Shown in pieces: positions 3,773 to 38,459 of a stretch of DNA of 38,459 nucleotides. The notes under the pieces were generated by a model. It saw only the letters and a program-made list of their open reading frames with translations, was not told the origin of the DNA and made no database searches. The number at the start of each line of letters is the position of its first letter. Within the stretch, counting starts at the first letter, position 1. Both the position numbers and the translations under genes were made by a program. This stretch comes from Natronincola sp. (GTDB lineage Bacteria > Bacillota > Limnochordia > Darwinibacteriales > Darwinibacteriaceae): contig DUPA01000012.1 of NCBI GenBank assembly GCA_012838515.1, positions 1 through 38,459 on the forward strand, written 5' to 3'.

Positions 3773-3784
3773 TAAGTCTGTCTA

Positions 3785-21060: not shown

Positions 21061-21174
21061 TTAATTCATTTCCCTTCCCCAAGAAATTAAATTAGATTTA
21101 AAGTAATTGAGCATAATAATTCTTCAACTACTCTCAAGATCCCTTTACTTATCTACATCTGTGTTTCTACTCGA

Positions 21175-21200
21175 ATAAAAAAAGCCACTTTCGTGGCTTC
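21175..21200 (-). terminator. Rho-independent terminator after the ArsR/coiled-coil pair
   Basis: The minus strand reads GAAGCCAC-GAAA-GTGGCTT followed by TTTTTTATT. Confidence 0.7.
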
Positions 21201-21223
21201 AAAACTTATGATTTTTGCGGTTC

Positions 21224-21532
21224 TCATTTTTTGAGCTTAAAAATCTCCTCTTTCAACCATTTATTCTCGATACGTAGTGCACGGTAGGCCCGTTCATATT
21301 CTTCGTTCTGTCGTTTAAAATCCTGTGCTTCACGAACAGCATTATGTATTTTGGTCTCATAGTCATGCACCAAGCGGGAAAGCTCTAAAAATGCTTCCTC
21401 ATTATGTTTAATTTTAGCTTCTAATTCTTTTACAGTAATATTGTCTTTAAAAGACTGAAGTCCGGCCCGCCAAACCATGGGAATCGCTTTCCAAATAGAT
21501 GAGGCCTTAGTTATTTCCTTGATTTTTTTCAT
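21224..21532 (-). CDS. Hypothetical 102-aa coiled-coil protein
   Basis: ORF with a GGGAGG SD. A heptad-like charged helix runs from ~residue 35 to the end. Lies 44 nt downstream of the ArsR gene. Confidence 0.45.
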   Translation of the reverse strand: MKKIKEITKASSIWKAIPMVWRAGLQSFKDNITVKELEAKIKHNEEAFLELSRLVHDYETKIHNAVREAQDFKRQNEEYERAYRALRIENKWLKEEIFKLKK

Positions 21533-21575
21533 TAAAGCCTCCCACTTAAAAAGGAAAAATTTTGATAGTCCAAAA

Positions 21576-21872
21576 TCACTCTGCCTTAGCTAAAGGTTTT
21601 GCTTGGAGAAAACAATCGATCTCGTTATTTACCCAACTACGAAGATCAGTTGATAAAGAATAATAACTCCAAGTATATTCCGTACGCTTTTTAATTAAAC
21701 CTTCGTCATGCAATCGTTTAAGATGATAAGATACTTTGGGTTGATTAATCCCTAAAGCTTGCGCCAAGTGCCCCACGCACATTTCCTTCTTCTTCAACAA
21801 AAGGATTATTTGCAAACGAATCGGGTCCGCTAGTACGTGGAAACGCCGGGCGGATTTTCTAATTTGTACCAT
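21576..21872 (-). CDS. ArsR/SmtB-family transcriptional regulator
   Basis: 98 aa. LADPIRLQIILLLKKKEMCVGHLAQALGINQPKVSYHLKRLHDEGLI is a winged-HTH of the ArsR type. Confidence 0.8.
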   Translation of the reverse strand: MVQIRKSARRFHVLADPIRLQIILLLKKKEMCVGHLAQALGINQPKVSYHLKRLHDEGLIKKRTEYTWSYYSLSTDLRSWVNNEIDCFLQAKPLAKAE

Positions 21873-21888
21873 AATCCAACCCTCCCTG

Positions 21889-21900
21889 TGAAAAGTTTCA
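21889..21900. promoter_or_regulatory. Palindrome TGAAA-AG-TTTCA, possible ArsR operator
   Basis: A perfect 5-2-5 inverted repeat lies between the predicted -10 and the ArsR SD, at about +1 to +12. Confidence 0.25.
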
Positions 21901-21907
21901 TAATCCC

Positions 21908-21936
21908 ATTGTAGCCTTATTTTACCATTAAATCAA
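21908..21936 (-). promoter_or_regulatory. SigA-type promoter of the ArsR operon
   Basis: The minus strand reads TTGATT (21936-21931) - 17 nt - TACAAT (21913-21908). Confidence 0.5.
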
Positions 21937-21966
21937 GCCCAAAAACAAAGGAAGGGAGTGAAAAAA

Positions 21967-22206
21967 TTAAAGCATGCGTTCTTCTATTTTCTTAAGTAGG
22001 TGAACGGTGCCTACTTCACGTGCCAGTCGCCTTGAAAGTTTATAACAAAATGTTGCCAATTGTTGCTCGCCCTTTTGCATATACTCATCGCCCATCCTGA
22101 GGAGTCTTTTAATCTTTCTCCGTGGTTCTAAGGGCATTTTAACAACAAAATTTATTTTTAACCTTTGCCATTGTTTAGGCGGTTCAACGTCCATCGTCAA
22201 TTTCAC
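21967..22206 (-). CDS. Hypothetical small basic protein (79 aa or shorter)
   Basis: Has an ORF only. A possible TTGCGA-17-TATTAT promoter lies upstream at ~22239-22267. No family recognised. Confidence 0.35.
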   Translation of the reverse strand: MKLTMDVEPPKQWQRLKINFVVKMPLEPRRKIKRLLRMGDEYMQKGEQQLATFCYKLSRRLAREVGTVHLLKKIEERML

Positions 22207-22302
22207 GCTCCACTAGTATACTTTAATAAAAGAAATAATAGCATAAATAAAATATTTTCGCAAGCTAAAAATGAAACGCCCAAAACACCGGTGTCAAGCT
22301 AT

Positions 22303-22833
22303 CTATTGGGCCAATCCCTTGCTATATGCTTGGTAAGCCCGATTTAACCAAAAAACTGCAATTGTGTATACAGGTATGGTGAATATCCTTGTCACCAAGC
22401 GTGTGGGAAGTAAAATAAAAAAGCCTTTTCCGTATAAAATTGTTAACCATAGAGTGTTCAAAACGACACCGGCAATCAAATCGGTTGCAAATACCGCACC
22501 CCCGATTCTCCAAATAGTGAGATTGTCCTTGCGTTTATGTAAAAAAACACCGGGCAAAAATCCCGTTATTGCTGCACTTATGGCAAAGCCGGGGAAAAAC
22601 GGGCCTCCAAACTGGTTAATAAGATATCCAATCACATCGGAGGCAATCCCTGCAATTGCCCCCGCTAATGGTCCAAACAATAAACCGGCTAAAATCAATG
22701 GAACTTCCCCAAGCGTGATGCGCAGACCGACAAAACCGGCAATAGGTATCCCTATTCCAAAAACACGCGTCAGAACAATGGACACAGCAGTTAGCAAGCC
22801 CACATTGGCGGCTTGCCTAACACTAAAATTCAT
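22303..22833 (-). CDS. folT: Folate-family ECF transporter S component
   Basis: 176 aa. VSIVLTRV...RITLGEVPLILAGLLFGPLAGAIAGIASDVIGYLI...FFPGFAISA matches the FolT family pattern. Starts 11 nt after the pmbA stop. Confidence 0.72.
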   Translation of the reverse strand: MNFSVRQAANVGLLTAVSIVLTRVFGIGIPIAGFVGLRITLGEVPLILAGLLFGPLAGAIAGIASDVIGYLINQFGGPFFPGFAISAAITGFLPGVFLHKRKDNLTIWRIGGAVFATDLIAGVVLNTLWLTILYGKGFFILLPTRLVTRIFTIPVYTIAVFWLNRAYQAYSKGLAQ

Positions 22834-22844: not shown

Positions 22845-24200
22845 CTAGTCACCTGAAACTGCCAAACTCTTAATAATTAGCGAAGGCGAGCCCATACTTC
22901 CGAAAGATCCGGGAACATCAAATTCGAGATCCGAACCAATTATCTCCACATTTTGCAAAAGTTCGAAGAAATTCCCCGCAATAGTGATCTGGTCAACTGG
23001 TTTTGAGATTTCCCCATCTTCCACGAGATATCCATAAGCACCTAATGAAAAATCCCCCGAAACGGAATCTGCACCGGAGTGGGTTCCCTGAACGCTTATG
23101 ATTATCAAACCGGTATCCAACTCGCGAACTAATTCGTTAAAATCTTTTTTACCGGGTTGAATAAAGAAATTTGTAGGTGATATGCTCACGGTCGATTTAA
23201 ATGATGGTCGCGATGCATTGCCGGTGGATTCAACGCCATCTTTTTTGGCTGTTTTTAAGTTATGAAGATACGTGGTTAATTTTCCTGAATCGATTACCTT
23301 TTTAGTTTTCGTTGCCACCCCTTCTCCGTCAAAAGGAGCAGATGCCCCCCCGTGAACAAGTAGTGGATCGTCAACTAGTGTCACTATAGGGCTGGCAATA
23401 TCAGTATTTAGCTTGTTAGCCAAAAGGGACAGACCCTTTTGGACATTTTCTGCAGAGAAAACCGAGGCGAAGGTACCTAAAAGTTCGCGAGCCACATCAT
23501 ACCTTAGCAAAATTCGGTAATCTTTCGATTTAACTGTGCCTGCATTAAGTAAGGAAATTCCTTCTTGGACAGCTTCTTCTGCAAGATATTTTGCATCGAA
23601 TTTTGACCAATCCGTGCCAAAGAAATATCGGGTTCCTGTTTTCACTTGCTCGCCTTCTTGTACAACCGCCGACACTATGCCGTAAGCACCATTACTTCTA
23701 AAAGATTGCTCCAAACCTTTGGTATTTGCGATATATACCTCGCCCTCACTATATCCCGTGGCAGCCCAATTAACCATTGAAACGCGCTCGTCTGCGGCCA
23801 AGGCGTATTTTTCTAAATCTAATGCAGACTTTATTTTTTCAGCGGTGGGAAGTTCGGCAAGAATCTCGTTAAATGCTTCTATTTTTGGATAATTAGTGGC
23901 ACCGGCAAAAAATTCTATTTCATCATCGGAATCAATTATCTGCGCATTTGCCTTTGCCTTTGCAATCAGAAAACTTACAGAATCTTCATCTAAAGTTTCG
24001 ACGTACGCATAGCCGACCTTTTGTCCGTACCTACCTCTAAAGCCTATACCCTGCACCACACTGAGACTATAATCATCAACGTCCTCTTGGTAGGCTTTAA
24101 CCCTAAAAGCTTTGGAGCGGGTCGCATATATCTCCATATCACTCAAACCTTGTTCCTTACCTGCACTAAAAACCAGTTCCTTAAATTCTTTAAAGTCCAT
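22845..24200 (-). CDS. pmbA: TldE/PmbA-family metalloprotease partner subunit
   Basis: 451 aa of the TldD/PmbA fold lacking the HExxxH motif. C-terminal GDFS.GA.G. pattern. Its start overlaps the tldD stop by 1 nt. Confidence 0.85.
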   Translation of the reverse strand: MDFKEFKELVFSAGKEQGLSDMEIYATRSKAFRVKAYQEDVDDYSLSVVQGIGFRGRYGQKVGYAYVETLDEDSVSFLIAKAKANAQIIDSDDEIEFFAGATNYPKIEAFNEILAELPTAEKIKSALDLEKYALAADERVSMVNWAATGYSEGEVYIANTKGLEQSFRSNGAYGIVSAVVQEGEQVKTGTRYFFGTDWSKFDAKYLAEEAVQEGISLLNAGTVKSKDYRILLRYDVARELLGTFASVFSAENVQKGLSLLANKLNTDIASPIVTLVDDPLLVHGGASAPFDGEGVATKTKKVIDSGKLTTYLHNLKTAKKDGVESTGNASRPSFKSTVSISPTNFFIQPGKKDFNELVRELDTGLIIISVQGTHSGADSVSGDFSLGAYGYLVEDGEISKPVDQITIAGNFFELLQNVEIIGSDLEFDVPGSFGSMGSPSLIIKSLAVSGD

Positions 24201-25591
24201 TATTCTGCCTCCTTTCGCCCACCTACTGTTAGTTCGGATACGCGAATAGTTGGTTGGCCCACATCCGCCGGAATACTACCACTTAGTGAACCACACATAC
24301 CTTGCCCGGTTGCTAAGTTCGATCCTACCATATCTATTTTCTGTAAAACATCACTTCCACGACCGATAAGAGTTGCACCTCTAACGGGTTTTTCAATTTT
24401 CCCGTTGCGCACAATATAACCTTCTGCAACCGCGAAGTTAAATTCGCCTGTGGCAGGATTTACGGATCCCCCACCTAGCTTTTTAGCATAAAGGGCGTGT
24501 TCTGTGTTGCTAATAATTTCCTCACGTGTTGACGTGCCCGCACAGATAAATGTATTAGTCATACGAGATGTAGGTGCAAATTTATATGATTGACGGCGAC
24601 CATTTCCCGTTGGATCCATGCCCATGCGTCTTGCATTAAGTTTATCGATCATATATCCCTTTAAGATACCATTTTCAATTAAAACATTTCTCTGGGTCTT
24701 CGCACCTTCATCGTCAATGTTTTGCGAACCCCAAGCATTAGGGATGGTACCGTCGTCAACCGCCGTAACCAGGTCGCTGGCAACCTTTTCTCCGATTTTA
24801 CCTGCGAAAACAGATGCACCCTTGGCGACAGCAGTCGCCTCTAGACCGTGCCCGCAAGCCTCGTGAAAGATGACTCCACCGAATTCATTTTCTATGATCA
24901 CCGGGTATTTGCCGCTGGGGGCATAATCTGCGTTTACCATGGTTACCCCGCTGCGAGAAGCATCCTCCGCATATTCTCTTACATCGATATGATCGAAAAA
25001 TTCGAATCCCATATGGGCGCCGGGTCCATTAAATCCTGATTGTTTTTCATTTCCTTTTGTGGCAATGGAGTTGATGGCTAATCGTGTTCTAACGCGGCGA
25101 TCTTCTATCATTAAACCTTCTGAATTAGCAATAAAGACCTTTTGATCTTTGTCCAGATAATTAATTATAACCTGACTAATTTGCTCATGGTAATTAGACG
25201 CCGCGTGATGGGCTTGCTTCATAACATCAACCTTGTCTTTTTCCTTAACATAATTGGGATTTAACATAATAGGGTGATGTTTATGAAAACATTCTCGTGC
25301 TAAAACAATACTTTTTATATGCGTTGTGCCTTTTAAGGCGGCTGCGGCTTCTAAAGCCACCTTCATTAAATTATCTCTGCTCGTATCATTTGTATAGGCG
25401 TAAACGCTTTTAAAGCCCAAAAAGATCCTGATTCCCAACCCATAGTCTCGACCGCTAACACCTTGTTCAATGGCTCCATCAACCATCTTTATGCTTGTAT
25501 TAAAAGTATCTTCAGCAAATATCTCAGCGAAATCGCCGCCAGAGGATAAGGCAGCAAGCAATACATCTGTAACCAACCTTTCGTTAAGCAT
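24200..25591 (-). CDS. tldD: TldD metalloprotease
   Basis: HEACGHGLE (HExxxH) and the GxC motif GMCGSLSG. The start is trimmed to the ATG at 25589-25591 (MLNERLV...), with a GGGAGGG SD 6 nt upstream. Confidence 0.88.
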   Translation of the reverse strand: MLNERLVTDVLLAALSSGGDFAEIFAEDTFNTSIKMVDGAIEQGVSGRDYGLGIRIFLGFKSVYAYTNDTSRDNLMKVALEAAAALKGTTHIKSIVLARECFHKHHPIMLNPNYVKEKDKVDVMKQAHHAASNYHEQISQVIINYLDKDQKVFIANSEGLMIEDRRVRTRLAINSIATKGNEKQSGFNGPGAHMGFEFFDHIDVREYAEDASRSGVTMVNADYAPSGKYPVIIENEFGGVIFHEACGHGLEATAVAKGASVFAGKIGEKVASDLVTAVDDGTIPNAWGSQNIDDEGAKTQRNVLIENGILKGYMIDKLNARRMGMDPTGNGRRQSYKFAPTSRMTNTFICAGTSTREEIISNTEHALYAKKLGGGSVNPATGEFNFAVAEGYIVRNGKIEKPVRGATLIGRGSDVLQKIDMVGSNLATGQGMCGSLSGSIPADVGQPTIRVSELTVGGRKEAE

Positions 25592-25659
25592 AAAAAGCCC
25601 TCCCTTTATTCTGTGATATAATAACATAACCAATCTTAATTTTAGAAAGGATATAAACT

Positions 25660-26355: not shown

Positions 26356-27411
26356 GTGGATGTAAAACATTTTTTACGGAACTTGAGTGAAAGTTCAGGA
26401 GTATCAGGCTACGAACAAAACATTACAGAACAGATCAGCACGGCCTGTACATGGGCTGATGATATGCGGCGCGATAAACTTGGCAACCTCATTATGCTTA
26501 AAAGGGGTGAAGGTACTAAACCCAAAAAGAAAATTATGCTTGCAGCCCACATGGATGAAATCGGGCTAATTATCACAAAAGTCGAAAAAGGGGGGTTTCT
26601 TCGCTTCGGAACCATCGGTGGATTTGATCAACGGGTATTACTTGGTCAGGAGGTTATTGTTCACGGAAAAACCCCTTCATTGGGAATTATAGGAGCGAAG
26701 CCCCCCCACGTCCAAGCCCACGGAGAACAAAATAAGGCCGTCAAACTAGAAGACCTTTTTATTGACTTAGGCTATGACACAAAAGAAGATGCTGAAAAAC
26801 TAGTTCGCATAGGGGATCTAGTTACGCTAAAAAGGGAAGTAATAGATCTACAAAGCTCGTTACTTGCAGGCAAAGCATTTGATGACCGTGCGGGGGTTGC
26901 CGCTATTTTTGAATGTTTTCAAATTCTCTCCACACTTCACCATGAAGTTGATGTCTATGGTGTTGCAACGGTCCAAGAAGAAGTGGGACTAAGGGGAGCC
27001 GTCACAAGCACTTATGGTATTGTTCCTGATTTGGGCATTGCCATTGACGTTAGCTTTGGTGATCAACCTGATTTAAGAGAAAGCGAAACTATCAAACTGG
27101 GAAACGGACCGGGAATAGCCATAGGACCCCATGTGCATCCAAAAGTATATGATCGCATGGTAAAGACCGCTAAGGAATGGAATATCAAATATTCTTTAGA
27201 CCCCTCGCCATCACCCGGAGGAACAGATGCATATGCGATTCAAGTTGTGCAAGCAGGGGTTGCAACCATTTTGCTTTCAGTCCCCCTCCGTTATATGCAT
27301 ACTTCCATTGAAACAATTGACTATGACGATGTGAAATCTACAGGCAAACTCATGGCCATGTTTATAGCAGGACTTAATAATGAATTTGTGGAGGGGTTAA
27401 CATGCTTCTAG
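26356..27411 (+). CDS. M42-family metallo-aminopeptidase (paralog 1)
   Basis: 351 aa with AAHMDEIGLIIT, GKAFDDRAGVA and VQEEVGLRGA motifs. GTG start with a GAAGGAGGA SD. Confidence 0.85.
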   Translation: MDVKHFLRNLSESSGVSGYEQNITEQISTACTWADDMRRDKLGNLIMLKRGEGTKPKKKIMLAAHMDEIGLIITKVEKGGFLRFGTIGGFDQRVLLGQEVIVHGKTPSLGIIGAKPPHVQAHGEQNKAVKLEDLFIDLGYDTKEDAEKLVRIGDLVTLKREVIDLQSSLLAGKAFDDRAGVAAIFECFQILSTLHHEVDVYGVATVQEEVGLRGAVTSTYGIVPDLGIAIDVSFGDQPDLRESETIKLGNGPGIAIGPHVHPKVYDRMVKTAKEWNIKYSLDPSPSPGGTDAYAIQVVQAGVATILLSVPLRYMHTSIETIDYDDVKSTGKLMAMFIAGLNNEFVEGLTCF

Positions 27412-28427
27412 CGCAATTGACTGAAGTCAACGGAGCCCCGGGTCAAGAAGGTGAAGTGCGCAATTTGATTCGGGAACAAATTGAACCTTTCGTTGATGAA
27501 ATTAAAACAGATGCTTTAGGGAATTTAATCGCCATTAAAAACCCTCGAGCTATCGGCCCTAAAGTGATGCTCGCGGCCCATATGGATGAGGTTGCACTTA
27601 TGATAGTAGGTATTAAAAACAATGGCATGCTAGAATTTCGGCCGATAGGCGGAATCGATCCGCGTGTACTGGTGGCAAAGACAGTAATTGTGGGTAAGAA
27701 AAAGATTAATGGCGTTATCGGCGCTAAGCCAATCCATTTACAACGTCCCGATGAACGAGAAAAGGCTTTATCCATACAAGAATTATATATTGACATGGGA
27801 GTTAAAGATAAGGAAGAAGCAAAACGCTTGGTAAGTCTTGGGGAAATTGCCTATTTTACAACAAAATACGAAGAATTCGGGGAAGGAAAAGTGAAAGCGA
27901 AGGCACTCGATGATCGTGTTGGTTGTGCTCTTGCCATTAGGCTTTTGCAAGAAGATCTTTCTTTTCCTTTAATAGCGGCATTTACTGTGCAAGAAGAAGT
28001 TGGTCTCAGGGGTGCCGGTGTTGCAACTTATCAAATCAAACCCGATCTGGCATTAATTCTTGAGGGCACCACTGCCTCCGATGTTCCGGGAACCGATGAA
28101 CACAAGCACGCAACTTCGTTAGGTAAAGGTCCGGCCATTACATTTATGGATCGTGCGGTTATTACCCACCCACCTTTAGTCAAAGAACTTTTCGCCCTAG
28201 CTAATGAAAAGAATATTCCGGTTCAAGCCCGGCGTAATACCGCGGGAGGAACAGATGCAGGTCAAATACAACTAACCGAATCGGGAACAAAAGTTGCTGT
28301 TATTGCTGTACCTTGCCGCTATATTCATTCTCCCGCCTCTGTTATGAGCAAAAAAGACTACGATGGCGCATACGAACTAATCAAACACTATTTAAGATGT
28401 CTCGAAGAAAGGGAGGATTTCCAATGA
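27402..28427 (+). CDS. M42-family metallo-aminopeptidase (paralog 2)
   Basis: 341 aa with AAHMDEVALMIV, KALDDRVGCA and VQEEVGLRGA. Overlaps paralog 1 by 10 nt. Confidence 0.85.
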   Translation: MLLAQLTEVNGAPGQEGEVRNLIREQIEPFVDEIKTDALGNLIAIKNPRAIGPKVMLAAHMDEVALMIVGIKNNGMLEFRPIGGIDPRVLVAKTVIVGKKKINGVIGAKPIHLQRPDEREKALSIQELYIDMGVKDKEEAKRLVSLGEIAYFTTKYEEFGEGKVKAKALDDRVGCALAIRLLQEDLSFPLIAAFTVQEEVGLRGAGVATYQIKPDLALILEGTTASDVPGTDEHKHATSLGKGPAITFMDRAVITHPPLVKELFALANEKNIPVQARRNTAGGTDAGQIQLTESGTKVAVIAVPCRYIHSPASVMSKKDYDGAYELIKHYLRCLEEREDFQ

Positions 28428-29422
28428 AGGAAACTATCCGCCAACTAACCGAGGCCTTTGGGCCTTCCGGCTATGAAACTGAGGTCACGAGTTTAATAAA
28501 GACTATGATAACGGATTTTGTAGATGAAATAAAAACCGATGTATTAGGCAACTTAATAGCTATAAAGAAAGGTGCTTCCAATGGACATAAGATTATGTTC
28601 GCGGCACACACTGATGAAATTGGTGTTGTGGTAACCCACATAGACAAAGAGGGTTTCCTCAGATTCGCCACTGTGGGCGGTGTGGGAATATCAACCCTTG
28701 TGGGTAATCGAGTTCGTTTTCCCAACGGAATAATCGGAGTAATTTACCACGAAAAAGCTGATTGGAAAGATTTAAAAATAGATAAGCTCTACATTGATAT
28801 AGGGGCAGAATCAAAAGAAGAAGCCATGGAACAAGTGAAAATCGGGGAATTCGGGATCTTTCATCGAGAATTTTGTGACTTAGGTAATCGTTTGATTGCA
28901 AAAAGTATGGATGACCGCGTGGGCTGTGCCGTTCTTGTGGAAGCAATAAAGAAGATCAAAGAGCCAAGGAATGCCTTATATTTTGTTTTTACAACGCAAG
29001 AAGAAGTTGGTCTAAGGGGGGCTCGCACCGCCGCTTATGATCTAGAACCGGATCTTGGAATTGCCGTAGACGTTACCATTACCGGTGATATGCCTGAAGC
29101 CAGGCGCATGGAGGTTTCACTAGGCAAGGGTGCCGCCATTAAAGTAAAGGATTCCTCATTAATAGTACATCCAAAAGTAAAGCAAATATTGATGGATCTA
29201 GCAGAAAAGAATAAGATACCCTATCAAATGGAGGTTTTAGAATTCGGTGGTACTGATGCCGGGGCAATTCATCTCACTAGGTCAGGAGTACCATCGGGAG
29301 CGATCTCCATTCCCACACGTTATGTGCACTCGCCTTCGGAGATGATCGATATTCGCGATGTTGAAGCAAGTGTTGACTTAGTTGTTGCATTGGCTAACAA
29401 AGAACTTAACGAACTAAATTAA
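28424..29422 (+). CDS. M42-family metallo-aminopeptidase (paralog 3)
   Basis: The start is trimmed to the ATG at 28424 (MKETIRQLTEAFGPSG), giving an ATGA overlap with the paralog 2 stop. A GGGAGG SD lies upstream. Motifs AAHTDEIGVVVT, KSMDDRVGCA and TQEEVGLRGA. Confidence 0.85.
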   Translation: MKETIRQLTEAFGPSGYETEVTSLIKTMITDFVDEIKTDVLGNLIAIKKGASNGHKIMFAAHTDEIGVVVTHIDKEGFLRFATVGGVGISTLVGNRVRFPNGIIGVIYHEKADWKDLKIDKLYIDIGAESKEEAMEQVKIGEFGIFHREFCDLGNRLIAKSMDDRVGCAVLVEAIKKIKEPRNALYFVFTTQEEVGLRGARTAAYDLEPDLGIAVDVTITGDMPEARRMEVSLGKGAAIKVKDSSLIVHPKVKQILMDLAEKNKIPYQMEVLEFGGTDAGAIHLTRSGVPSGAISIPTRYVHSPSEMIDIRDVEASVDLVVALANKELNELN

Positions 29423-29472: not shown

Positions 29473-29802
29473 TTAATGTTCGCAGATTACTCCGGAATTC
29501 TCCAAACTTCCCTCTAAGTATTTCTCCACAACGTCTCGCGCCTGCCCCGAAGCTCCGGCCACCACAATAATTCCATTTTCAGCGAAGATACTAACCGCTG
29601 CGCTACCGATTCCACCTGCAATCATCACATCAACTCCAAGTTCGTGAAGGAAGTTGGGTAGAAAACCCGGTTTATGTCCGGGATTAGTAATTGATTCAAC
29701 CTCGGCTATTTTTTTATCCTCAATTTTAAAGATTTCAAAAAAAGCACAGTGCCCAAAATGGCTAGCTATCACACCTTTATCTGTTGCAACTGCTATTTTC
29801 AT
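29473..29802 (-). CDS. NifB/NifX-fold (dinitrogenase FeMo-cofactor-binding domain) protein, ORP-like
   Basis: 109 aa. MKIAVATDKG.IASHFGHCAFFEIF and a GIGSAA motif typical of the NifX/NafY/orange-protein fold. Confidence 0.75.
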   Translation of the reverse strand: MKIAVATDKGVIASHFGHCAFFEIFKIEDKKIAEVESITNPGHKPGFLPNFLHELGVDVMIAGGIGSAAVSIFAENGIIVVAGASGQARDVVEKYLEGSLENSGVICEH

Positions 29803-30677
29803 TCTTTTCCTCCCCCTTTATTAAGCAAAATAGTCATGGTCTTTTGAAAAATATCTTTCGCACTTTTGCCGGCCGGACAAGGTTCATCCACAATACTAAG
29901 GCCTCGGTTTACCAGGGAGCCCGCAGTGGGATCAAAGGGAATCTTACCCACTAAAGGAATCTCCCTCTCTAGGCAAAGCGCTGCTATTTCACGGCTTATG
30001 TCCGAATTAGTATCATATTTATTGATACAAACTGCTTGTTCAATGTTAAAAAGCGAAGACGTTTCCATTATTCGCTTCAAATCACTTAATCCCGATAAAG
30101 ATGGTTCTGCAACTAACAAAACCAAATCAACTCCGCTTAAGGATGCATGCACAGGACAGCCAATTCCCGGAGAACCGTCAATAATCGAGATCCTCGCATC
30201 GTTAGCATATTCTTTTAAACCCCTTTTCACCTCTGCAACTAAAAGTCCGGAGTTTCCGCTACCCATTTTCAACTGTGCGGTAGAAAAGATTACATCATTT
30301 TTATAAAGAACGAGTTCACCGGCTACGGTCGGAACTAAGGTGATTGCCCCAAAAGGACAAACAAGCTCACATACTCCACAGCCTTCACAACTGATGGAAT
30401 TAACTGCATATATCGGCTCCTTTTGAATAGCACTAAATCTACAATGACTCCTACATAGATCACATGATGTGCAAAGATCGATATTTATTACTGCTTTATC
30501 TAAGCCAAAGTAATCGTCTATCTTGGGCTCGGGTAGATTCCCGGCGACTAAGTGAAGATTAGGGGCATCCACATCGCAATCGGCATATGCTTTGGCTTTT
30601 GCGAGCTTTATAAAGGCACTTGCAATAGTTGTTTTACCTGTTCCACCTTTGCCACTTAAGATTAATAGTTGCTTCAA
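29799..30677 (-). CDS. MinD/ParA-type P-loop ATPase with an inserted 2x[4Fe-4S] ferredoxin domain
   Basis: 292 aa with the deviant Walker A SGKGGTGKTT and Cys motifs CTSCDLCRSHC and CEGCGVCELVCP. Confidence 0.8.
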   Translation of the reverse strand: MKQLLILSGKGGTGKTTIASAFIKLAKAKAYADCDVDAPNLHLVAGNLPEPKIDDYFGLDKAVINIDLCTSCDLCRSHCRFSAIQKEPIYAVNSISCEGCGVCELVCPFGAITLVPTVAGELVLYKNDVIFSTAQLKMGSGNSGLLVAEVKRGLKEYANDARISIIDGSPGIGCPVHASLSGVDLVLLVAEPSLSGLSDLKRIMETSSLFNIEQAVCINKYDTNSDISREIAALCLEREIPLVGKIPFDPTAGSLVNRGLSIVDEPCPAGKSAKDIFQKTMTILLNKGGGKE

Positions 30678-31525
30678 TTTAACTCCCCCAAAATATCCGC
30701 TAATAGTTTCTTGAAAAGCGAAAGGTATGCCTTTTCCTGATCAATTACTAGCCGCCCTGTGCTAATTGTTTTTGCGAGTTTAAGATCATGGGGAATTCGA
30801 GCCATTATGGGAATTTGCTCCTTCATGCAAAAATCTTCTAAGGGATTAGTTTCTTTTGTGAATTTATTGATCACAACTCCGAACGGTTTTTTCAGTAAAC
30901 TGACCAACTCTAAGACCATCTGAAAGTTATGTAAGCCAAATAAGGTTGGCTCCGCTACAATTAAGCAGTAGTCGGAATAAGTTATACTTTCCAACACGGA
31001 ACAGGCAGTACCCGGCGGACAATCAATTATGGTTAGCCCGTCATTTCTTTCAACATCTTGAATCTTCTCGATCAAAGGAACACCTGATACTTCTCCTATG
31101 TTTAAGATGCCGGTAATGACAATAACATCTCCCGCACGACCTTTTTCAATTCTGCCAACCACTTTGTCCTTTTCAGTTAATGCTTCGCTCGGACAAACTA
31201 ATACACAACCCCCACAGGAATGACAAATTTCTTCAAATATTAGTAGATGACTACCGATATGTGCCAAGGCGTTAAATCTACAAAAATCCACACAAAGACC
31301 GCAAGCATCGCATTGTTCTAGATTGATTTTAGGTACTAACACGGTCACATCTTCTGATTCGATGCTTTCGGGTTTCAAAAATAAGTGCCCATTTGGCTCT
31401 TCAATATCACAATCGAGATAGTAACTTCGTCCGGCCGCGGCGGCTAAGTTTACTGACACGAAGGTCTTACCGGCCCCACCTTTTCCACTGAGCACAGCAA
31501 TTGTTGGCTTACGATCTGCGCCCAT
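30674..31525 (-). CDS. MinD/ParA-type P-loop ATPase with an inserted 2x[4Fe-4S] ferredoxin domain (paralog)
   Basis: SGKGGAGKTF, with CDACGLCVDFC and CHSCGGCVLVCP. I chose the ATG at 31523-31525 (MGADRKPTIAVL...). The track start at 31567 is the alternative. Confidence 0.8.
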   Translation of the reverse strand: MGADRKPTIAVLSGKGGAGKTFVSVNLAAAAGRSYYLDCDIEEPNGHLFLKPESIESEDVTVLVPKINLEQCDACGLCVDFCRFNALAHIGSHLLIFEEICHSCGGCVLVCPSEALTEKDKVVGRIEKGRAGDVIVITGILNIGEVSGVPLIEKIQDVERNDGLTIIDCPPGTACSVLESITYSDYCLIVAEPTLFGLHNFQMVLELVSLLKKPFGVVINKFTKETNPLEDFCMKEQIPIMARIPHDLKLAKTISTGRLVIDQEKAYLSLFKKLLADILGELN

Positions 31526-31874
31526 GTAAACCTGCTTGAATTTCGTCAAGAACCGAAAGCTTGCCATCTTTGTAAGCCAGTATATTGTCCTTTAAAGATT
31601 CACCCTCGGTTTTATAAATTTTCACCTTAGCCGCATCTAAAACCCTTAATACATTTCCACCGCAGCGCGGTGTTAAAACAACATCAATATTTGCGTTTAC
31701 CAAAGATTGACTGGCACGTACACCTGCACCGTCGGGGCTTCGAGTTGCTTCGTTTTCTAAATAAACTGTCTTATTGGTTTCTGTATCGTGAATCATAAAA
31801 TAAGGAGCCCGTCCAAAGGCATTACATACACCTGATTCCGACGATGAACCATTCGCCGGTATGGCTATTTTCAC
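31509..31874 (-). CDS. NifB/NifX-fold protein, ORP-like (paralog)
   Basis: 121 aa. MKIAIPANG...FGRAPYFMI. GTG start with an AAAGGAGG SD. Confidence 0.75.
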   Translation of the reverse strand: MKIAIPANGSSSESGVCNAFGRAPYFMIHDTETNKTVYLENEATRSPDGAGVRASQSLVNANIDVVLTPRCGGNVLRVLDAAKVKIYKTEGESLKDNILAYKDGKLSVLDEIQAGLHGRRS

Positions 31875-33722: not shown

Positions 33723-34514
33723 TTAGTTCTTTATCTTCACTGAACCTGTGAAAACCTTTGTTGCAGGACCCGCCATAAAAACACGATTATCTTCCCATTC
33801 AATTGTCAAATCACCGCCTGGCAAAGATACCTGAACAGGTGAACTAACTAAGCCACGCCTTATGGCTGCAACAGCCGCGGCACAAGCACCCGTTCCGCAC
33901 GCTAAGGTTGGACCTACACCGCGCTCCCATACTTTCACTTTTAAACGATTATCCGATATAACCTGCGTAAATTCAATATTCGCTTTTTCCGGCCATACTT
34001 CATCTTCCTCCAAACGAGGCCCCCACGTCAAAAAGTCTAGGTTATCTAAATCATCAACAAAGATTACAGCATGGGGATTCCCCATTGATACGGCATCAGC
34101 GGTCCATATTTTGCCGTGGGAATCTATCTTTACTTCATCACCCCCATTAAAAGTAAAATCAGGTTCGCCCATGTCAACAACGTATAGCCCGTCATTTACG
34201 CTTATTTTCTTAACCCCGCTTATTGTACCGATCTGTAACAAGTGGCCCTTAACTAAATTATTTCTCACCAAATAATCTGCCATGCAGCGAATTGCATTAC
34301 CACACATTTCCGCTTCGGTGCCATCGGAATTAAATATGCGCATCGTGTATATATCTTCGTTCATCGTAATAAACACTAGTCCATCTGCGCCTATACCAAA
34401 TTGACGATGACAAAGCATTTTAGCCATACTTTCTCCGTTAGATACATGCATTCCTTTAAAGTCTTCTATAAAAATAAAATCATTACCAAGCCCATGATAT
34501 TTTGTAAAGTGCAC
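33723..34514 (-). CDS. dapF: Diaminopimelate epimerase
   Basis: FTKYHGLGNDF, with catalytic Cys motifs in MCGNAIRC and ACGTGACAA. I chose the GTG at 34512-34514 (VHFTKYHG), which has a GGGGGA SD 5 nt upstream. The track TTG at 34550 would overlap the upstream gene. Confidence 0.9.
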   Translation of the reverse strand: MHFTKYHGLGNDFIFIEDFKGMHVSNGESMAKMLCHRQFGIGADGLVFITMNEDIYTMRIFNSDGTEAEMCGNAIRCMADYLVRNNLVKGHLLQIGTISGVKKISVNDGLYVVDMGEPDFTFNGGDEVKIDSHGKIWTADAVSMGNPHAVIFVDDLDNLDFLTWGPRLEEDEVWPEKANIEFTQVISDNRLKVKVWERGVGPTLACGTGACAAAVAAIRRGLVSSPVQVSLPGGDLTIEWEDNRVFMAGPATKVFTGSVKIKN

Positions 34515-34539
34515 ATTAATCCCCCTAGCTGTGCTGACA

Positions 34540-35832
34540 CTATCGTTCAAGAAAAGCGCTCACTTTGTCAACAGCAAAAATAACATCTTTAACATCCTCT
34601 TTGGTCACAAAATGATTTAGATGAATTTGGACAGCCCTACTCAATAGCTCCACCGTTTTTGGACATGTTTTTTCATTATATTCAATTATATCTTGTGAAG
34701 GATTATTATTCCACGGCAAAGATCCTCCCCACGGATCTTGCTTACGCATGAGAAACTCCCAATTTAAATAAATGTGCTGATCATTACTATTAGAATCATA
34801 CACCTGAAAAGTAGGAATTCCTTCCGCACTAAGTGCTTTGGTCATAAATCGCGCTTGTTCTTGGTTTGATGTATAAAATATTAAACTAATACCGAGATCC
34901 CTTTCAGTACCAAAGACGGAAGAAAACGTGATATTATTCCGCGCACGCAGTAATTCAACTAGATCTTTTTTTGTCTTCTTAGTATGCCCCAGGATGGCGG
35001 GCATTCTTTTTAGTTGTCCCAAAGACAAAGCTGCTTGCAATTCGGTCAAACGGTAGTTTTGGCCCGGAAAAGCGGGTATTTTACGTTCAATGAAACGAAA
35101 TTGATAACCTGCACCATCATGATAAAGGACCGCACGTTGCCACAATTCTTCAGAATTAGTAACAATCATGCCCCCTTCCCCCGTTGTAATAACCTTTGAT
35201 TGCTGAAGGCTAAAGCAACCAAGGTGCCCAATGGAACCTAACATACGCCCCTTATAGGTACCGCCGTTAGATTGAGCTGCATCTTCGATTACCATTATAT
35301 TATGTTTGCTCGCAATTGACATGATCGGGTCCATATCCGCGGAAATTCCGCGCATATGAACGACAATGACTGCTTTAGTACGTGGGGTAATGCGCTTAAT
35401 CAAATCGGTAGGATCGATAGTAAGACTATCATCTATTTCCGCTAAAATCGGAATCGCACCGACAATTGCTACGGCCGCTGCCGTAGCAACCCAAGTATAA
35501 GCAGGAATGATCACTTCATCTCCGGGTCCTACACCCGACGCTATTAAAGCGCAGATCAAAGCGGATGTACCCGAGTTTACGGCTAAAGCATGATTGGTTC
35601 CTATAAATTCTTTATACTCTTGTTCCAGTAAACTTGTTTCCGATTGTTCAAGCCCTTGGGGAAAATAACGAAAAATACGTTTTTTCTCCAGTACATTTAA
35701 AACCCGGTCTTTTTCTTCCGGACCTAATTCCTCACTACCGAGGTATTTAGAAACCCATGGTTCGGTACGGACAGGCGTACCTCCATAAAGAGCTAATTCT
35801 TCCACAAAATCTCCCCTTGCTAAGATTTCCAT
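34540..35832 (-). CDS. DegT/DnrJ/EryC1/StrS-family PLP aminotransferase (long form, ~420-430 aa)
   Basis: ALAVNSGTSAL, DEVIIPAYTW, and a PLP-lysine context FSLQQSKVITTGEGG. An alternative start is the GTG at 35803-35805, preceded by AGGGGAG. Confidence 0.8.
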   Translation of the reverse strand: MEILARGDFVEELALYGGTPVRTEPWVSKYLGSEELGPEEKDRVLNVLEKKRIFRYFPQGLEQSETSLLEQEYKEFIGTNHALAVNSGTSALICALIASGVGPGDEVIIPAYTWVATAAAVAIVGAIPILAEIDDSLTIDPTDLIKRITPRTKAVIVVHMRGISADMDPIMSIASKHNIMVIEDAAQSNGGTYKGRMLGSIGHLGCFSLQQSKVITTGEGGMIVTNSEELWQRAVLYHDGAGYQFRFIERKIPAFPGQNYRLTELQAALSLGQLKRMPAILGHTKKTKKDLVELLRARNNITFSSVFGTERDLGISLIFYTSNQEQARFMTKALSAEGIPTFQVYDSNSNDQHIYLNWEFLMRKQDPWGGSLPWNNNPSQDIIEYNEKTCPKTVELLSRAVQIHLNHFVTKEDVKDVIFAVDKVSAFLER

Positions 35833-35889: not shown

Positions 35890-35917
35890 AAAACAAAACC
35901 GAGGGCTGCTCCCTCGG
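35890..35917 (-). terminator. Rho-independent terminator immediately after the fusion gene
   Basis: The minus strand reads CCGAGGG-AGCAG-CCCTCGG followed by TTTTGTTTT, starting at the nt after the TAA at 35918-35920. Confidence 0.65.
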
Positions 35918-38459
35918 TTATGCGCTACATTCTTTTCTAAGGGCCTTCACCCTATCCCAAGTTTCTGCAGGTAAAGGTCGATCAAAATTTCTATAACCAG
36001 CAAGCTCAAACCCTTGCTTGCTCGCTAATTTACGAACATATTCCAAATGCTCCAAACTTAAATCAGCCCCGATACTAATGTGCTTGTAATGCTTATCTAG
36101 GGCAAGCATTATTGTCTCGGACATACAAGCAAATGCTTCACCCTTTTCAAACCCGAAATTCCATCCTAAATCAGGCTTATTAGGTAAGGCAACGACACCC
36201 CCATCAATAACTAATACGTCCGGTCTTTTACTTAAAACCTGTTTGCTCACATTACTCGGTCTAGACATATCACACACGATTGCACCTAGCTTTAAGGTTT
36301 CGGGGGTAATCAGCACCTCAGAGCTACTTGTTGCCGTCATAATTACATCTGCACTTGGTAGGTATTTTTCAGTGTTTACGGTGATTGAAATGGGTGCACC
36401 CCGGTCCAGCAGATTCTTTGCATATTCTATCCAGGATTTCAGATCAATATCTTCCGACGGAAAACAGGTAAGCTTAGATACATAATCCCCGAGACTACCG
36501 GGGGAAAAGACCTTTCCTCGATCGCCTAATTCACGAAGGTGTTTGATCATATCAACTACGACTTTAAGAATCCTATACTCACTTTTTTCTTGTCTTGCGG
36601 GATTGCCAATTAAAATCAACTTTTGCACTTGTTCACTCAAAAGTAAAGCCAATGCTTTACCAACTGCTCCGCCGGCACCGACAACTGCCGCCGTCACAGT
36701 ATTAAGATCCATACCGATTCGCTGTGCGGCATCTAAAATGGCCTCAACACCTGTGACAACAGTATAACTATTACCTGTAGTAAGTGCCACATTGGTGTGG
36801 GGTAACAATGAACGACCACCCATGGTAACAACAGATGTATAGGCACCTAAACCTACTATTTTAGCACCTCTGTCTTCGGCAAGTCGAATGGCGGCGGCTA
36901 TTTCTTCAATGGCCTCTGCCTTCGATAACTCCCGTAACTGATCTGCGGTTTTAGGTACGCAAATGAATTCTCCATAGGCGCTTTGACCATTATTGTCAAT
37001 TATTCTGCTGCCGCTTACTACAAAAGGCTCCACTAGATCATTCCAACGAGAGCTCAAATCTGCGAGCTGATCTTCAGTTAAGTTTTTTAGACTCTCGTCA
37101 AACTCAGTGTAATTTTGCAAATCAACAGGATGAACCAAAAAGGCAAAACGACCATCATTTTTCTCAGGCGTATCATTAATTGTTTCTGTCATTCTGCTTT
37201 GTTGTCCCGGGAAAGATTTGCGACTATAGCCCACAAGGTGCCCTAAGAATGAGGCGGTATCGCGGCATTCCAATTGTTCAATGGTGCTTTTAATTGCTTT
37301 ACTTACATTTTCAATTTGTTCATCATTAATAATCAAAGGCGGTTCAATCCTTATGACGCCGGCACCATTAAGGGTTGGTGCCACCCTAACCTTTTCTACA
37401 TTTAATAAATAAGATGACACCATGGGCGTAAGCATCTCTTGCTCGGCCATGACGCCGAGAAGGCTATTGGGATAAGCATCCTTGCAATTATTAAACTCAA
37501 TGCCGAGCATCAAACCTTGGCCACGTACTCCTTTGATGATTGTGGGATGTTCTAAGGCAATTTGCTGTAAAGCACACTTCAACTTATCCCCTTTGTCAGC
37601 AATTTCCTTGACCAAAGAGGAATTATTTTCCGTTAGTAATTGCACTACCGCCAATCCTACGCGACAGGCAAGTGTGTTTCCTGCGAAAGTTGAGGAATGC
37701 TTCATGGCGAATTCTTCTGTATATACTTCATCTTTACACAAAACTGCACCAATGGGAAACAAACCGCCCCCCAGCGCTTTGGCGAGGACAAGAACATCGG
37801 GGGTAACATCTTCCTTTTCACAAGCAAACATGGTACCGGTTCTTCCGAGACCCGTTTGTATTTCATCGAAAATTGTAAGAACCCCATGTCTACCGCACAG
37901 ATCTTGAACGTCTTTCAGATAGCCATGATATGCTTCGACAATGCCGCCCTCGCCTTGTATTGGTTCCACAATGAAAGCTGCCGTTTCAGTGGCTTTTTCC
38001 TCAAGATAAACCCTTAATGCATCAATGTCGCCAAAGGGAATATGGTAAAATCCGTCGACGGGGGCCCCGAAAACCTCTTGATAATCTTTGTTGCCTGTCG
38101 CGGAAAGGGCTCCTAAAGTTTTACCATGAAAACTATTCTTAGTTGCCAAGATTGAATGTTTACCTGTTTTAGCACGAGAAAGCTTCAGTGCAGCTTCAAC
38201 AGCTTCTGCACCGCTATTGGCAAATGTAACATTTTTTAGCCCCTTAGGTGCAATGGCAATAAGGCGTGCTCCTAAATCACCGGCGGCCTCCAAAAGCGAT
38301 GGTTGAATAAAACTAGGTTCTTGATTTAGCTCAACATTATGTAAAGCGCCCCAAATCTCCGGTGGATTATAACCGAAGGGCAATGCACCATAGGCTGCTA
38401 TGCAGTCAAGATATTCTTGACCCTCAACGTCATACAAATAACATCCCAATCCACGCTTA
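35918..38459 (-). CDS. Fusion protein: class-III PLP aminotransferase (N-terminal) + acyl-ACP-reductase-like NAD(P)-binding domain (C-terminal); 5' end outside the window
   Basis: The frame stays open to the window edge (..KRG upstream of the track's TTG), so the N-terminus is missing. Aminotransferase motifs are FDEIQTGLGRTG and DVLVLAKALGGG (Lys codon 37778-37780). After a linker (~37150-37210) come FAFLVHP, GLGAYTSVV, TTGNSYT, VVGAGGAVG (~36660-36700) and FACMSE (Cys codon 36125-36127). These parallel FGLIGHL, ALGGFTSII, TTGNTHT, VVGATGDIG and FACFAE of cyanobacterial AAR as I recall it. Confidence 0.8.
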   Translation of the reverse strand, partial: KRGLGCYLYDVEGQEYLDCIAAYGALPFGYNPPEIWGALHNVELNQEPSFIQPSLLEAAGDLGARLIAIAPKGLKNVTFANSGAEAVEAALKLSRAKTGKHSILATKNSFHGKTLGALSATGNKDYQEVFGAPVDGFYHIPFGDIDALRVYLEEKATETAAFIVEPIQGEGGIVEAYHGYLKDVQDLCGRHGVLTIFDEIQTGLGRTGTMFACEKEDVTPDVLVLAKALGGGLFPIGAVLCKDEVYTEEFAMKHSSTFAGNTLACRVGLAVVQLLTENNSSLVKEIADKGDKLKCALQQIALEHPTIIKGVRGQGLMLGIEFNNCKDAYPNSLLGVMAEQEMLTPMVSSYLLNVEKVRVAPTLNGAGVIRIEPPLIINDEQIENVSKAIKSTIEQLECRDTASFLGHLVGYSRKSFPGQQSRMTETINDTPEKNDGRFAFLVHPVDLQNYTEFDESLKNLTEDQLADLSSRWNDLVEPFVVSGSRIIDNNGQSAYGEFICVPKTADQLRELSKAEAIEEIAAAIRLAEDRGAKIVGLGAYTSVVTMGGRSLLPHTNVALTTGNSYTVVTGVEAILDAAQRIGMDLNTVTAAVVGAGGAVGKALALLLSEQVQKLILIGNPARQEKSEYRILKVVVDMIKHLRELGDRGKVFSPGSLGDYVSKLTCFPSEDIDLKSWIEYAKNLLDRGAPISITVNTEKYLPSADVIMTATSSSEVLITPETLKLGAIVCDMSRPSNVSKQVLSKRPDVLVIDGGVVALPNKPDLGWNFGFEKGEAFACMSETIMLALDKHYKHISIGADLSLEHLEYVRKLASKQGFELAGYRNFDRPLPAETWDRVKALRKECSA

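Follow-up and report, generated by a model that had tools for sequence, protein, structure and literature searches.

We analysed a window of 38,459 nucleotides, the whole stretch of DNA taken from the Natronincola sp. contig DUPA01000012.1. At one end of this window, a single minus-strand open reading frame enters at the edge (38458) and ends with the TAA stop codon 35918-35920, giving a coding sequence (35918..38459, minus strand) with 846 codons plus the stop in the window. The missing 5' end was provided by a public contig (L001) that matches the window over 3272 nt with 0 mismatches. The start that fits the family pattern is an ATG at position 5824 of that contig (MHPYREF...), which places the first 25 codons beyond 38459 and yields a protein of 871 amino acids; the database gene call of 904 amino acids is over-extended relative to this family-consistent start. 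An intrinsic terminator hairpin (35897..35919, minus strand) with a 9-bp stem containing 6 GC pairs follows the stop and continues into TTGTTTT, with a T-run to ~35887. The sequence-only reading of this DNA had described a single frame with its 5' end outside the window and a terminator 3' of the gene, and both descriptions were accurate. More generally, all the features that it described are real, far beyond chance.

The genes upstream of the fusion gene, encoding a GNAT protein and a secreted protein, are divergently transcribed, and a near-consensus promoter and ribosome-binding site lie immediately before the fusion gene. On these grounds, the fusion gene looks monocistronic, and the earlier suggestion that its operon partners would lie upstream did not hold once the upstream genes were checked. 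No riboswitch or leader was detected ahead of the fusion gene when six loci were scanned with Rfam.

The N-terminal half (37283..38458, minus strand; window residues 1-392) is a class-III (omega-type) PLP aminotransferase domain, as had been proposed (PF00202, Aminotran_3, E 3e-93). In the PDB, PigE (4ppm) and the putrescine aminotransferase YgjG (4uox) match it best, both with E ~1e-85, and the Foldseek TMt is 0.83. YgjG is also the best non-fusion match (NCBIfam E 3e-101), and the domain is closest overall to putrescine, acetylornithine, ornithine, and GABA aminotransferases. The lysine of DVLVLAKALGGG is window residue K227 (codon 37778..37780, minus strand; LAKALGGG), equivalent to K252 of the 871-residue protein and K285 of P0001. 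K227 is invariant among the 51 family members in alignment A1 and aligns with chain position 300 of YgjG, the PLP lysine. An interdomain linker (37154..37282, minus strand; residues 393-435) follows; it is poorly conserved, with an A1 consensus that is mostly 'x', and is partly modelled at low confidence, with pLDDT <50 at P0001 residues 474-477 in the full-length model. As a whole, the full-length model (pLDDT 86, pTM 0.80) suggests a defined two-domain assembly.

The C-terminal half (35921..37153, minus strand; residues ~436-846) is predicted to be an NAD(P)H-dependent thioester reductase domain of the type found in cyanobacterial acyl-ACP reductase (AAR). It matches the NCBIfam model of the PigE N-terminal domain with E 8e-46, the AAR model TIGR04058 with E 2e-24, and AAR itself (PDB 6jzq) with E 1e-14. 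The dinucleotide-binding loop GAGGAVG (36659..36679, minus strand; residues 594-600) aligns with GATGDIG of AAR, and 123-124 of the 126 representative domains retain its glycines. The cysteine predicted to form the acyl-enzyme, C778 of FACMSE (codon 36125..36127, minus strand), aligns with Cys294 of AAR and Cys296 of PigE and is invariant in all 126 domains; at the position where Cys778 aligns, the entry for the AAR C294S mutant (6jzz) reads 'fas'. A TTGNS motif (36767..36781, minus strand; residues 560-564) lies at the junction of the two reductase sub-domains, with its Thr, Thr, and Gly present in 125, 88, and 126 of the 126 domains, respectively. In the structure of the TAD domain discussed below, the equivalent Thr-Thr-Gly touches the catalytic cysteine (bioRxiv 10.1101/2024.10.28.620694). 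Because transaminase hits swamped the fold search with the full-length protein, a second AF2 model was made of the reductase domain alone (pLDDT 89). Foldseek matched this model to AAR (6jzy/6jzq) with E 5e-22 and TMt 0.76-0.79, and the next unrelated folds followed at TM ~0.3. Thus, in fold and in conservation of the Cys and TTG motifs, the reductase half carries the features of the AAR-like superfamily (AAR, PigE-N, TamH-C, and TAD), which are a fold of two sub-domains, a catalytic Cys that opens a helix facing the nicotinamide site, and a TTG motif. Sequence and structure agree with the earlier assignment of an AAR-type domain with an acyl-enzyme cysteine and a dinucleotide fold.

The sequence-only reading knew of no characterised fusion of an AAR-type reductase to a transaminase, but two exist: PtTamH (PMC9594044) and PigE (PMC8341465). 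PtTamH belongs to the tambjamine YP1 pathway of Pseudoalteromonas tunicata, where it converts the TamA-bound C12 acyl-ACP to the C12 amine with glutamate as donor; the purified enzyme refuses acyl-CoA and needs its dedicated acyl-ACP partner (Richardson et al. 2022, PMC9594044). Set side by side by description, TamH and the window protein have an identical domain order, with the class-III PLP transaminase in the N-terminal half and the AAR-type reductase in the C-terminal half, and each carries a GxxGxxG motif as well as a catalytic cysteine close to the C-terminus. TamH is longer, however (941 amino acids, with ~90 extra N-terminal residues and its PLP lysine at K340 rather than K252), and is encoded in a 19-gene tam cluster with the adenylation-ACP protein TamA, whereas the window protein is solitary; neither a dedicated TamA-type adenylation-ACP partner nor a bipyrrole biosynthetic gene cluster was found within +/-10 kb at 38 loci of the fusion gene. 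PigE acts in the MAP branch of Serratia prodigiosin biosynthesis, where a thioester is reduced and the resulting aldehyde transaminated; clean NAD(P)H consumption was not seen with the purified protein (Couturier et al. 2021, PMC8341465). Each half of the fusion protein finds its top database match in PigE, which contains both domains (4ppm; E 2e-106 for the whole protein, 1e-25 when the reductase half is taken by itself). Its domains are in the reverse order, with the reductase N-terminal and the transaminase C-terminal, and no pig genes lie near the window gene. Since TamH and PigE already establish the architecture and the chemistry, the basic idea is no discovery. Their behaviour in vitro, with PtTamH refusing acyl-CoA and PigE lacking clean NAD(P)H consumption, indicates that AAR-type domains in fusions can be fastidious.

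Synechococcus elongatus AAR (PDB 6jzq/6jzy; PMC7089970) shares its fold, its Rossmann loop, and the TTGN motif with the reductase domain, and its Cys294 and H7 have equivalents there (for H7, the domain's invariant H27); from these features we infer a ping-pong acyl-enzyme mechanism for the reductase domain of the fusion. By contrast, AAR is a stand-alone enzyme of 341 amino acids that passes its aldehyde to ADO for alkane formation, and sequence identity is ~21%. None of the window ORFs scanned against Pfam gave an ADO-like match. Past the second Rossmann strand, the fusion domain contains an inserted helical segment of ~60 residues; it also lacks the 6-residue M279 loop of AAR and carries an arginine (in DMSRP) at AAR tunnel residue Y247. 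This arginine was considered as a marker of polar substrates and rejected: it is present in 102 of the 126 representative domains, across standalone domains and all fusion architectures, and is therefore common to the family at large rather than a substrate marker of one clade. The fused domain scored 86.5 bits against the AAR equivalog TIGR04058, which describes stand-alone proteins of ~340 amino acids and has a cut-off of 449.7, and the protein scored 527.9 bits in three stretches against the PigE equivalog NF053554 (cut-off 850). Both scores fall short, which places the protein in a distinct subfamily whose substrate is not transferable by homology. The TAD of CarI from the carmabin NRPS (PDB 9e4s-9e56) folds as a member of the AAR-like superfamily (Foldseek E ~1e-18 to 1e-19) and has an invariant cysteine beside the nicotinamide and the Thr-Thr-Gly motif, but it has only ~16% identity, resides at the end of NRPS modules without an aminotransferase, and is proposed to form amides, not amines (bioRxiv 10.1101/2024.10.28.620694). 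The same logic of activated carboxylate to aldehyde to amine is found in separate pairs, for example a PKS TR domain with CpkG in coelimycin biosynthesis and GluTR with GSAM in haem biosynthesis, for which aldehyde channelling is suspected (PMC8341465, PMC9594044). These pairs differ in using SDR-type TR domains or GluTR instead of an AAR-type domain, and in being two polypeptides.

The family comprises 2,844 representatives at 50% identity. In 85 of the 150 best representatives of the reductase domain at that identity, the aminotransferase lies directly upstream, and in 26 of these 85 the polypeptide additionally contains AMP-binding domains, phosphopantetheine-carrier domains, or both. Among close relatives, fusion to a transaminase predominates, and such co-fusion is Rosetta-stone evidence in favour of TamH/PigE-type chemistry. 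A fatty-acyl-AMP ligase (E 1.6e-134), a domain like long-chain acyl-CoA ligases, and one of the benzoate-CoA-ligase family are among the AMP-binding domains, and a gene for an MMPL lipid exporter follows some near relatives. The clade of the window protein contains more than 120 clusters and is found in 33 species genomes from Limnochordia, Halanaerobiales, Dethiobacteria, and Syntrophomonadaceae, with vertical conservation at 51-75% identity across several Bacillota classes. Mean column identity in alignment A1 (51 sequences) is 63%, and purifying conservation of the fusion family is strong. The host of the solitary gene studied here is an uncultured anaerobic spore-former. Public annotation names the clade proteins 'aminotransferase class III' only; the reductase half and the predicted acid-to-amine function are thus invisible in databases.

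In a search for partners, every ORF lying up to 10 kb to either side at 38 loci was clustered, and the ORFs were annotated with Pfam and NCBIfam. Two lineage-specific types of synteny emerged. In Limnochordia, an rluD-like gene, a Gate-domain gene, and a divergent gene for a secreted protein, with or without GNAT, precede the fusion gene, and a DegT-type aminotransferase, dapF, and GDPD, with or without dapB, lie on its other side. In the second type, cheR, acpS, nnr, alr, and genes for an 81-residue biotin/lipoyl protein and an SLH-like protein lie on one side, and complex-I/Mrp-like genes or GT4 and NTP-transferase genes lie on the other side. No gene within +/-10 kb of the 38 loci is common to both types, so no functional partner can be inferred. 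Two upstream genes in the genome of P0098, encoding an HTH protein and a 306-residue protein, are absent from every other locus. No ORF with an AMP-binding or PP-binding domain was present within +/-10 kb at any of the 38 loci except for one distant gene in L029. The clade therefore has no nearby adenylation enzyme, carrier protein, or biosynthetic cluster, and its neighbours are housekeeping genes.

With a probability of about 0.68, we propose that the gene encodes a bifunctional enzyme of the TamH/PigE type that converts an acyl thioester to an aldehyde and then to a primary amine. Both domains, their catalytic residues, and the fold are present in the protein, and the three chemical steps would follow those of its characterised homologues. 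The acyl group of an acyl-ACP or acyl-CoA would move onto Cys778 of the AAR-type domain; NAD(P)H, docked in the Rossmann fold that carries GAGGAVG, would reduce the acyl-enzyme thioester, releasing an aldehyde; and the aldehyde would pass to the class-III aminotransferase domain, where PMP would turn it into a primary amine, with glutamate or another amino donor restoring the PMP. This thioester-to-aldehyde-to-amine logic, already put forward in the sequence-only reading, is well supported by homology, given that TamH and PigE perform such chemistry; the fatty-acyl or amino-lipid substrate that it also suggested is a candidate. Because the gene is solitary and self-promoted, resides in a housekeeping region, and has no adenylation enzyme or carrier nearby, the thioester would most likely be drawn from a general pool, either acyl-ACP from fatty-acid synthase, as for cyanobacterial AAR, or acyl-CoA.

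A quite different view of the C-terminal domain is that it does not act on thioesters in this way and instead serves as a GluTR-like aminoacyl-tRNA reductase with a GSAM-like aminomutase, or as an oxidoreductase of the shikimate/amino-acid-dehydrogenase type. AAR has GluTR as a distant relative (PMC8341465), COG5322 carries the historical label 'predicted amino acid dehydrogenase' (JGI names), and there are weak matches in the Rossmann segment to Pfam Shikimate_DH (PF01488; 26.7 bits), THF_DHG_CYH_C (26.5 bits), and the hemA model TIGR01035. The PF01488 score lies just over the cut-off of 24.3, the match being restricted to 47 residues of the segment that binds NAD(P), and we read it as probable generic Rossmann similarity; the aroE model TIGR00507 gave E 0.022. 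Identity as a glutamyl-tRNA reductase was rejected, as TIGR01035 reached 19.8 bits (E 3e-4, 49 residues) against a cut-off of 209.55. AAR-family profiles score 20-40 orders of magnitude better (8e-46 for PigE-N and 2e-24 for AAR, versus 3e-4 for hemA and 0.02 for aroE). The same holds for the PDB (1e-14 for AAR versus 0.28 for GluTR, entry 3oj0) and for the fold, where AAR gives TM 0.76-0.79, amino-acid dehydrogenases ~0.3, and GluTR is absent from the top 50. Moreover, the best matches of the aminotransferase half are putrescine and acetylornithine aminotransferases, and the top 25 NCBIfam matches of this half include no GSAM/HemL model. In this comparison, which had been suggested from the sequence, AAR was far ahead and Cys778 aligned with its catalytic cysteine, making the GluTR or dehydrogenase identity extremely improbable.

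The remaining alternatives concern substrate and direction. The chemistry could be as proposed while the physiological substrate is a thioester from central metabolism whose acyl group is short or functionalised, such as succinyl-, malonyl-, or glutaryl-CoA/ACP, in which case the product would be an omega-amino acid or diamine precursor (GABA, beta-alanine, or 5-aminovalerate). The housekeeping surroundings (dapB/dapF, alr, acpS, nnr, and rluD-like genes, with no biosynthetic clusters), the vertical conservation, and the kinship of the transaminase with enzymes for small polar amines all fit such a role, as does the joining of some relatives to a non-fatty, benzoate-type CoA ligase, which implies a broad substrate range in the family. 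However, the closest characterised reductase domains (AAR, TamH, and PigE) all use aliphatic chains, several near relatives are joined to fatty-acyl-AMP ligases or have an MMPL lipid exporter encoded behind them, and the neighbourhood differs between sub-clades and may thus reflect inherited synteny only. We consider a short-acyl substrate unlikely. Less likely again is a catabolic direction in fermentative anaerobes, with the transaminase converting an amine to an aldehyde and the AAR-type domain serving as an acylating aldehyde dehydrogenase: Cys778 would form a thiohemiacetal, hydride would pass to NAD(P)+, and the acyl group would move to CoA with its thioester bond conserved. In CoA-acylating aldehyde dehydrogenases, the cysteine-based interconversion of thioester and aldehyde is reversible. 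The catabolic enzyme YgjG being the best non-fusion match of the transaminase, and the absence of a thioester-supplying partner within +/-10 kb at the 38 loci, would suit this direction, but all characterised members of the AAR/PigE/TamH lineage run reductively, and genes for amine uptake or downstream acyl-CoA use are not linked to the fusion gene.

The family of the window protein is much bigger than the literature suggests, with variants joined to fatty-acyl-AMP ligases, carrier domains, and aryl-CoA ligases. In the Bacillota clade, the gene is solitary and conserved without a dedicated carrier, and its product may, unlike TamH, accept free acyl-CoA or generic acyl-ACP; if so, it would be an attractive one-protein biocatalyst for fatty and speciality amines. 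We tentatively raise the possibility, which we consider rather unlikely, that in deep-branching anaerobic Bacillota (Limnochordia, Halanaerobiales, Dethiobacteria, and Syntrophomonadaceae) the solitary fusion serves primary metabolism, making amines directly from housekeeping acyl-ACP or acyl-CoA, or working in reverse. In the forward direction, its products would be free alkylamines or different primary amines destined for lipids of the membrane or envelope; in reverse, it would convert amines to acyl-thioesters with conservation of energy. Either role would be new for an architecture that has so far been met only in the secondary metabolism of pigments and alkaloids, and the clade points to a step in the physiology of these anaerobes, amine-forming or amine-consuming, that has gone unrecognised.

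The fusion gene (window 35918..38459) is one open frame on the minus strand that runs from the window's right edge to a TAA stop at 35918-35920, with 846 codons inside the window. A 9.2-kb public contig, L001, overlaps the window by 3272 nt with 0 mismatches, and we therefore used it as the missing 5' extension. Relatives of the protein are all ~871 aa with the N-terminus MHPY..., and the family-consistent start is the ATG at L001 5824, preceded by GGGAGG and a promoter-like TTGAAA-17-TATAAT with a TG extension (11/12 positions matched). The length and start of the relatives, together with this ATG and its upstream signals, argue that the true length is 871 aa and that only 25 codons lie beyond the edge. 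The public gene call P0001 (L001 5725..8439, 904 aa) has its start placed 33 codons too far upstream, crosses the gene's own promoter and reaches ≤27 nt from the divergent GNAT gene. At the other end, the stop codon overlaps a hairpin with a 9-bp stem, which is followed by a T-run. These data bear out the long ORF with its 5' end off-window and the terminator described in the sequence-only reading. Its upstream operon partners fell away, since the neighbors there in L001, a GNAT acetyltransferase and a signal-peptide protein without a Pfam match, are both divergent. Because of this divergence and the downstream terminator, the gene is most simply read as monocistronic. An Rfam scan of six fusion loci found neither a riboswitch nor a leader RNA upstream of the gene.

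Database comparisons upheld the earlier assignment of both halves, a class-III aminotransferase with its PLP lysine and an AAR-like domain with its FAC cysteine. Residues 1-392 match Pfam Aminotran_3 (E 3e-93), and among solved structures PigE (4ppm) and the E. coli putrescine aminotransferase YgjG match best (E ~1e-85). Lysine K227 in LAKALGGG (nt 37778-37780, minus strand; numbered over window-encoded residues) is aligned to YgjG chain position 300, which we take to be the PLP lysine. K227 and the motifs EPIQGEGG, DEIQTG and SSTF are invariant across 51 aligned family members.

The reductase domain (residues ~436-846) matches the PigE N-terminal domain with E 8e-46, TIGR04058, the cyanobacterial long-chain acyl-ACP reductase (AAR) model, with E 2e-24 and AAR crystal structures (6jzq) with E 1e-14. 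The cysteine of FAC, C778 (nt 36125-36127, minus strand), pairs in alignments with AAR Cys294, the bearer of the acyl-enzyme thioester (PMC7089970), and the C294S mutant entry 6jzz has its serine in exactly this column. A 1.8-billion-protein library yielded 126 near-complete representative domains, in all of which the cysteine and a following glutamate are invariant; the nucleotide-loop glycines are kept in 123-124 of them, and the residues T/T/G of the TTG(N) motif in 125/88/126. In a fold search, an AlphaFold model built from this domain only (pLDDT 89, pTM 0.88) matched AAR structures best (E 5e-22 to 1e-19, target-normalised TM 0.76-0.79), followed by the carmabin NRPS's AAR-like terminal amidation domain (E ~1e-18); the remaining matches were generic Rossmann enzymes (E ≥ 1e-5, TM ~0.3). 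By contrast, shikimate and glutamyl-tRNA reductase-type enzymes fit far worse (hemA E 3e-4, aroE 0.02, PDB GluTR 0.28), and the formal Pfam Shikimate_DH match covers 47 Rossmann residues only. A GluTR-like or amino-acid-dehydrogenase function is thus essentially excluded. We also considered an apparently invariant arginine aligned with AAR tunnel residue Y247 as a clue to a polar substrate. However, arginine occupies this position in 102 of the 126 domains, a set spanning standalone domains and all fusion architectures, and is a general family feature.

The pairing of a transaminase with an AAR-type reductase is already known from two characterized enzymes. In PtTamH, encoded in the tambjamine cluster of Pseudoalteromonas tunicata, the order is exactly that of the window protein, a class-III transaminase then an AAR-type thioester reductase, likewise with a GxxGxxG motif and a C-terminal catalytic cysteine; its conversion of TamA-bound fatty acyl-ACP to a fatty amine with glutamate as donor was demonstrated in 2022 (PMC9594044). 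The prodigiosin-pathway enzyme PigE combines these two domains in reversed order, and both thioester reduction and aldehyde transamination were demonstrated in 2021 (PMC8341465). The sequence-only reading was correct about the fusion and its meaning, although it knew of no characterized fusion of this kind. By analogy with these enzymes, the predicted thioester-to-aldehyde-to-amine chemistry is sound. The protein falls below the cut-offs of both the PigE equivalog model (528 bits; cut-off 850) and the AAR model (86 bits; cut-off 450), which sets it apart as a subfamily of its own without orthology to either.

Among 5.8 billion proteins searched, at least 120 clusters share 54-75% identity with the fusion protein; nearly all are full-length (~870 aa). 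A scan of species-representative genomes found 33 loci (51-70% identity), all in Bacillota MAGs; those with a name below the phylum are labeled Limnochordia, Dethiobacter/Dethiobacteria, Halanaerobiales/Halothermothrix, Syntrophomonadaceae or Clostridia. With the reductase domain alone as query, 2,844 representatives were found at E ≤ 1e-3, of which 643 reached E ≤ 1e-30. Among the best 150 of the 2,844, 59 were transaminase-reductase, 10 transaminase-reductase-AMP-binding, 12 AMP-binding(-carrier)-transaminase-reductase, 4 carrier-transaminase-reductase and 1 reductase-AMP-binding; the other 64 comprised fragments and stand-alone reductases. Among the fused activating domains are a fatty-acyl-AMP ligase (E 1.6e-134) and a long-chain acyl-CoA-ligase-like domain, and also one of the benzoate-CoA-ligase family that exceeds its cut-off. 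Because activating and carrier domains share polypeptides with the transaminase-reductase, they lend strong Rosetta-stone support to a predicted route from an activated carboxylate on a thioester through aldehyde to amine. The comparison shows that the predicted substrate class differs within the reductase family.

Leisingera plasmids carry relatives that are probably tri-domain proteins; an MMPL exporter follows them, and their annotation is class-III aminotransferase only. On Leisingera thetidis plasmid NZ_CP109791.1 (L048 7603..14186), a 1395-aa protein falls in size with the ~1400-aa proteins whose architecture in relatives is transaminase-AAR-reductase-AMP-binding; annotated only 'aminotransferase class III', it has an MMPL-family transporter directly downstream and a LolA-like lipoprotein-sorting protein before it. 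From its gene content, this region looks like a self-contained acid-to-amine module with exporter.

The gene content of the window (spoIIIA operon, efp, accC, xseA, ispA, OLE RNA, dxs) is that of the core chromosome of an endospore former in the Bacillota. The divergent pair upstream of the fusion gene (L001 4028..5698) comprises the 143-aa GNAT and the ~408-aa signal-peptide protein, also without an NCBIfam match. Synteny extends to 13 Limnochordia-type loci for the secreted protein and to about 4-5 for the GNAT; standing beside an amine-forming enzyme, a GNAT could N-acylate that enzyme's product. Beyond the terminator, a DegT-type aminotransferase gene overlaps dapF and is followed by genes for a glycerophosphodiester phosphodiesterase and an alpha/beta hydrolase. 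The DegT/DnrJ/EryC1-type protein (430 aa) has a ~60-aa N-terminal extension and is probably co-translated with dapF because the two genes (33723..35832, minus strand) overlap by 11 nt. Related regions are L045 10695..16659, with dapB just upstream of the DegT equivalent, and L046 10746..11483, and the enzyme may be a non-canonical diaminopimelate-pathway rather than a sugar aminotransferase. Clustering and annotating the flanking ORFs gave two lineage-specific neighborhoods with no gene common to both.

Elsewhere in the window, a full-length OLE (Ornate Large Extremophilic) RNA (3133..3781, minus strand; Rfam RF01071, 480 bits) is flanked by an ispA-like polyprenyl synthetase (3820..4713) and by a 188-aa ORF without a Pfam match (2550..3116), which probably encodes the OLE-associated protein OapA, then dxs (652..2538), the arrangement classically seen at OLE loci of anaerobic/extremophilic Firmicutes. 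Three tandem M42 glutamyl aminopeptidase-family paralogues (26356..29422, plus strand; 351, 341 and 369 aa) are syntenic in related genomes. Two successive MinD/CbiA-type P-loop proteins with inserted 4Fe-4S ferredoxin domains (29799..31874, minus strand), preceded by a 121-aa Nitro_FeMo-Co (NifB/NifX-like) protein, resemble a small Fe-S or cofactor-maturation cassette. A PmbA/TldD metallopeptidase paralogue pair (22845..25633, minus strand) has downstream two ECF-type riboflavin-transporter S-component paralogues (20578..22833, minus strand); no FMN riboswitch reached the Rfam gathering threshold.

Taken together, the TamH/PigE mechanism best explains the fusion protein, with a probability of roughly two in three. 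Within ±10 kb at 38 fusion loci, almost no AMP-binding or carrier-protein gene was found, the one exception being a distant gene in L029, and because no dedicated loader is encoded, the acyl thioester would be drawn from the general acyl-ACP or acyl-CoA pool. The housekeeping context of the gene and the affinity of its transaminase to putrescine, ornithine and GABA enzymes speak for the main rival, the same chemistry on a small central-metabolic thioester, which we consider unlikely. Less probable still is an enzyme run backwards, as an amine-catabolic module ending in an acyl-thioester; this direction is plausible in fermentative anaerobes but has no precedent in the AAR/PigE/TamH lineage. 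The interest of this enzyme lies not in its architecture itself but in its solitary, conserved, primary-metabolism-like setting.
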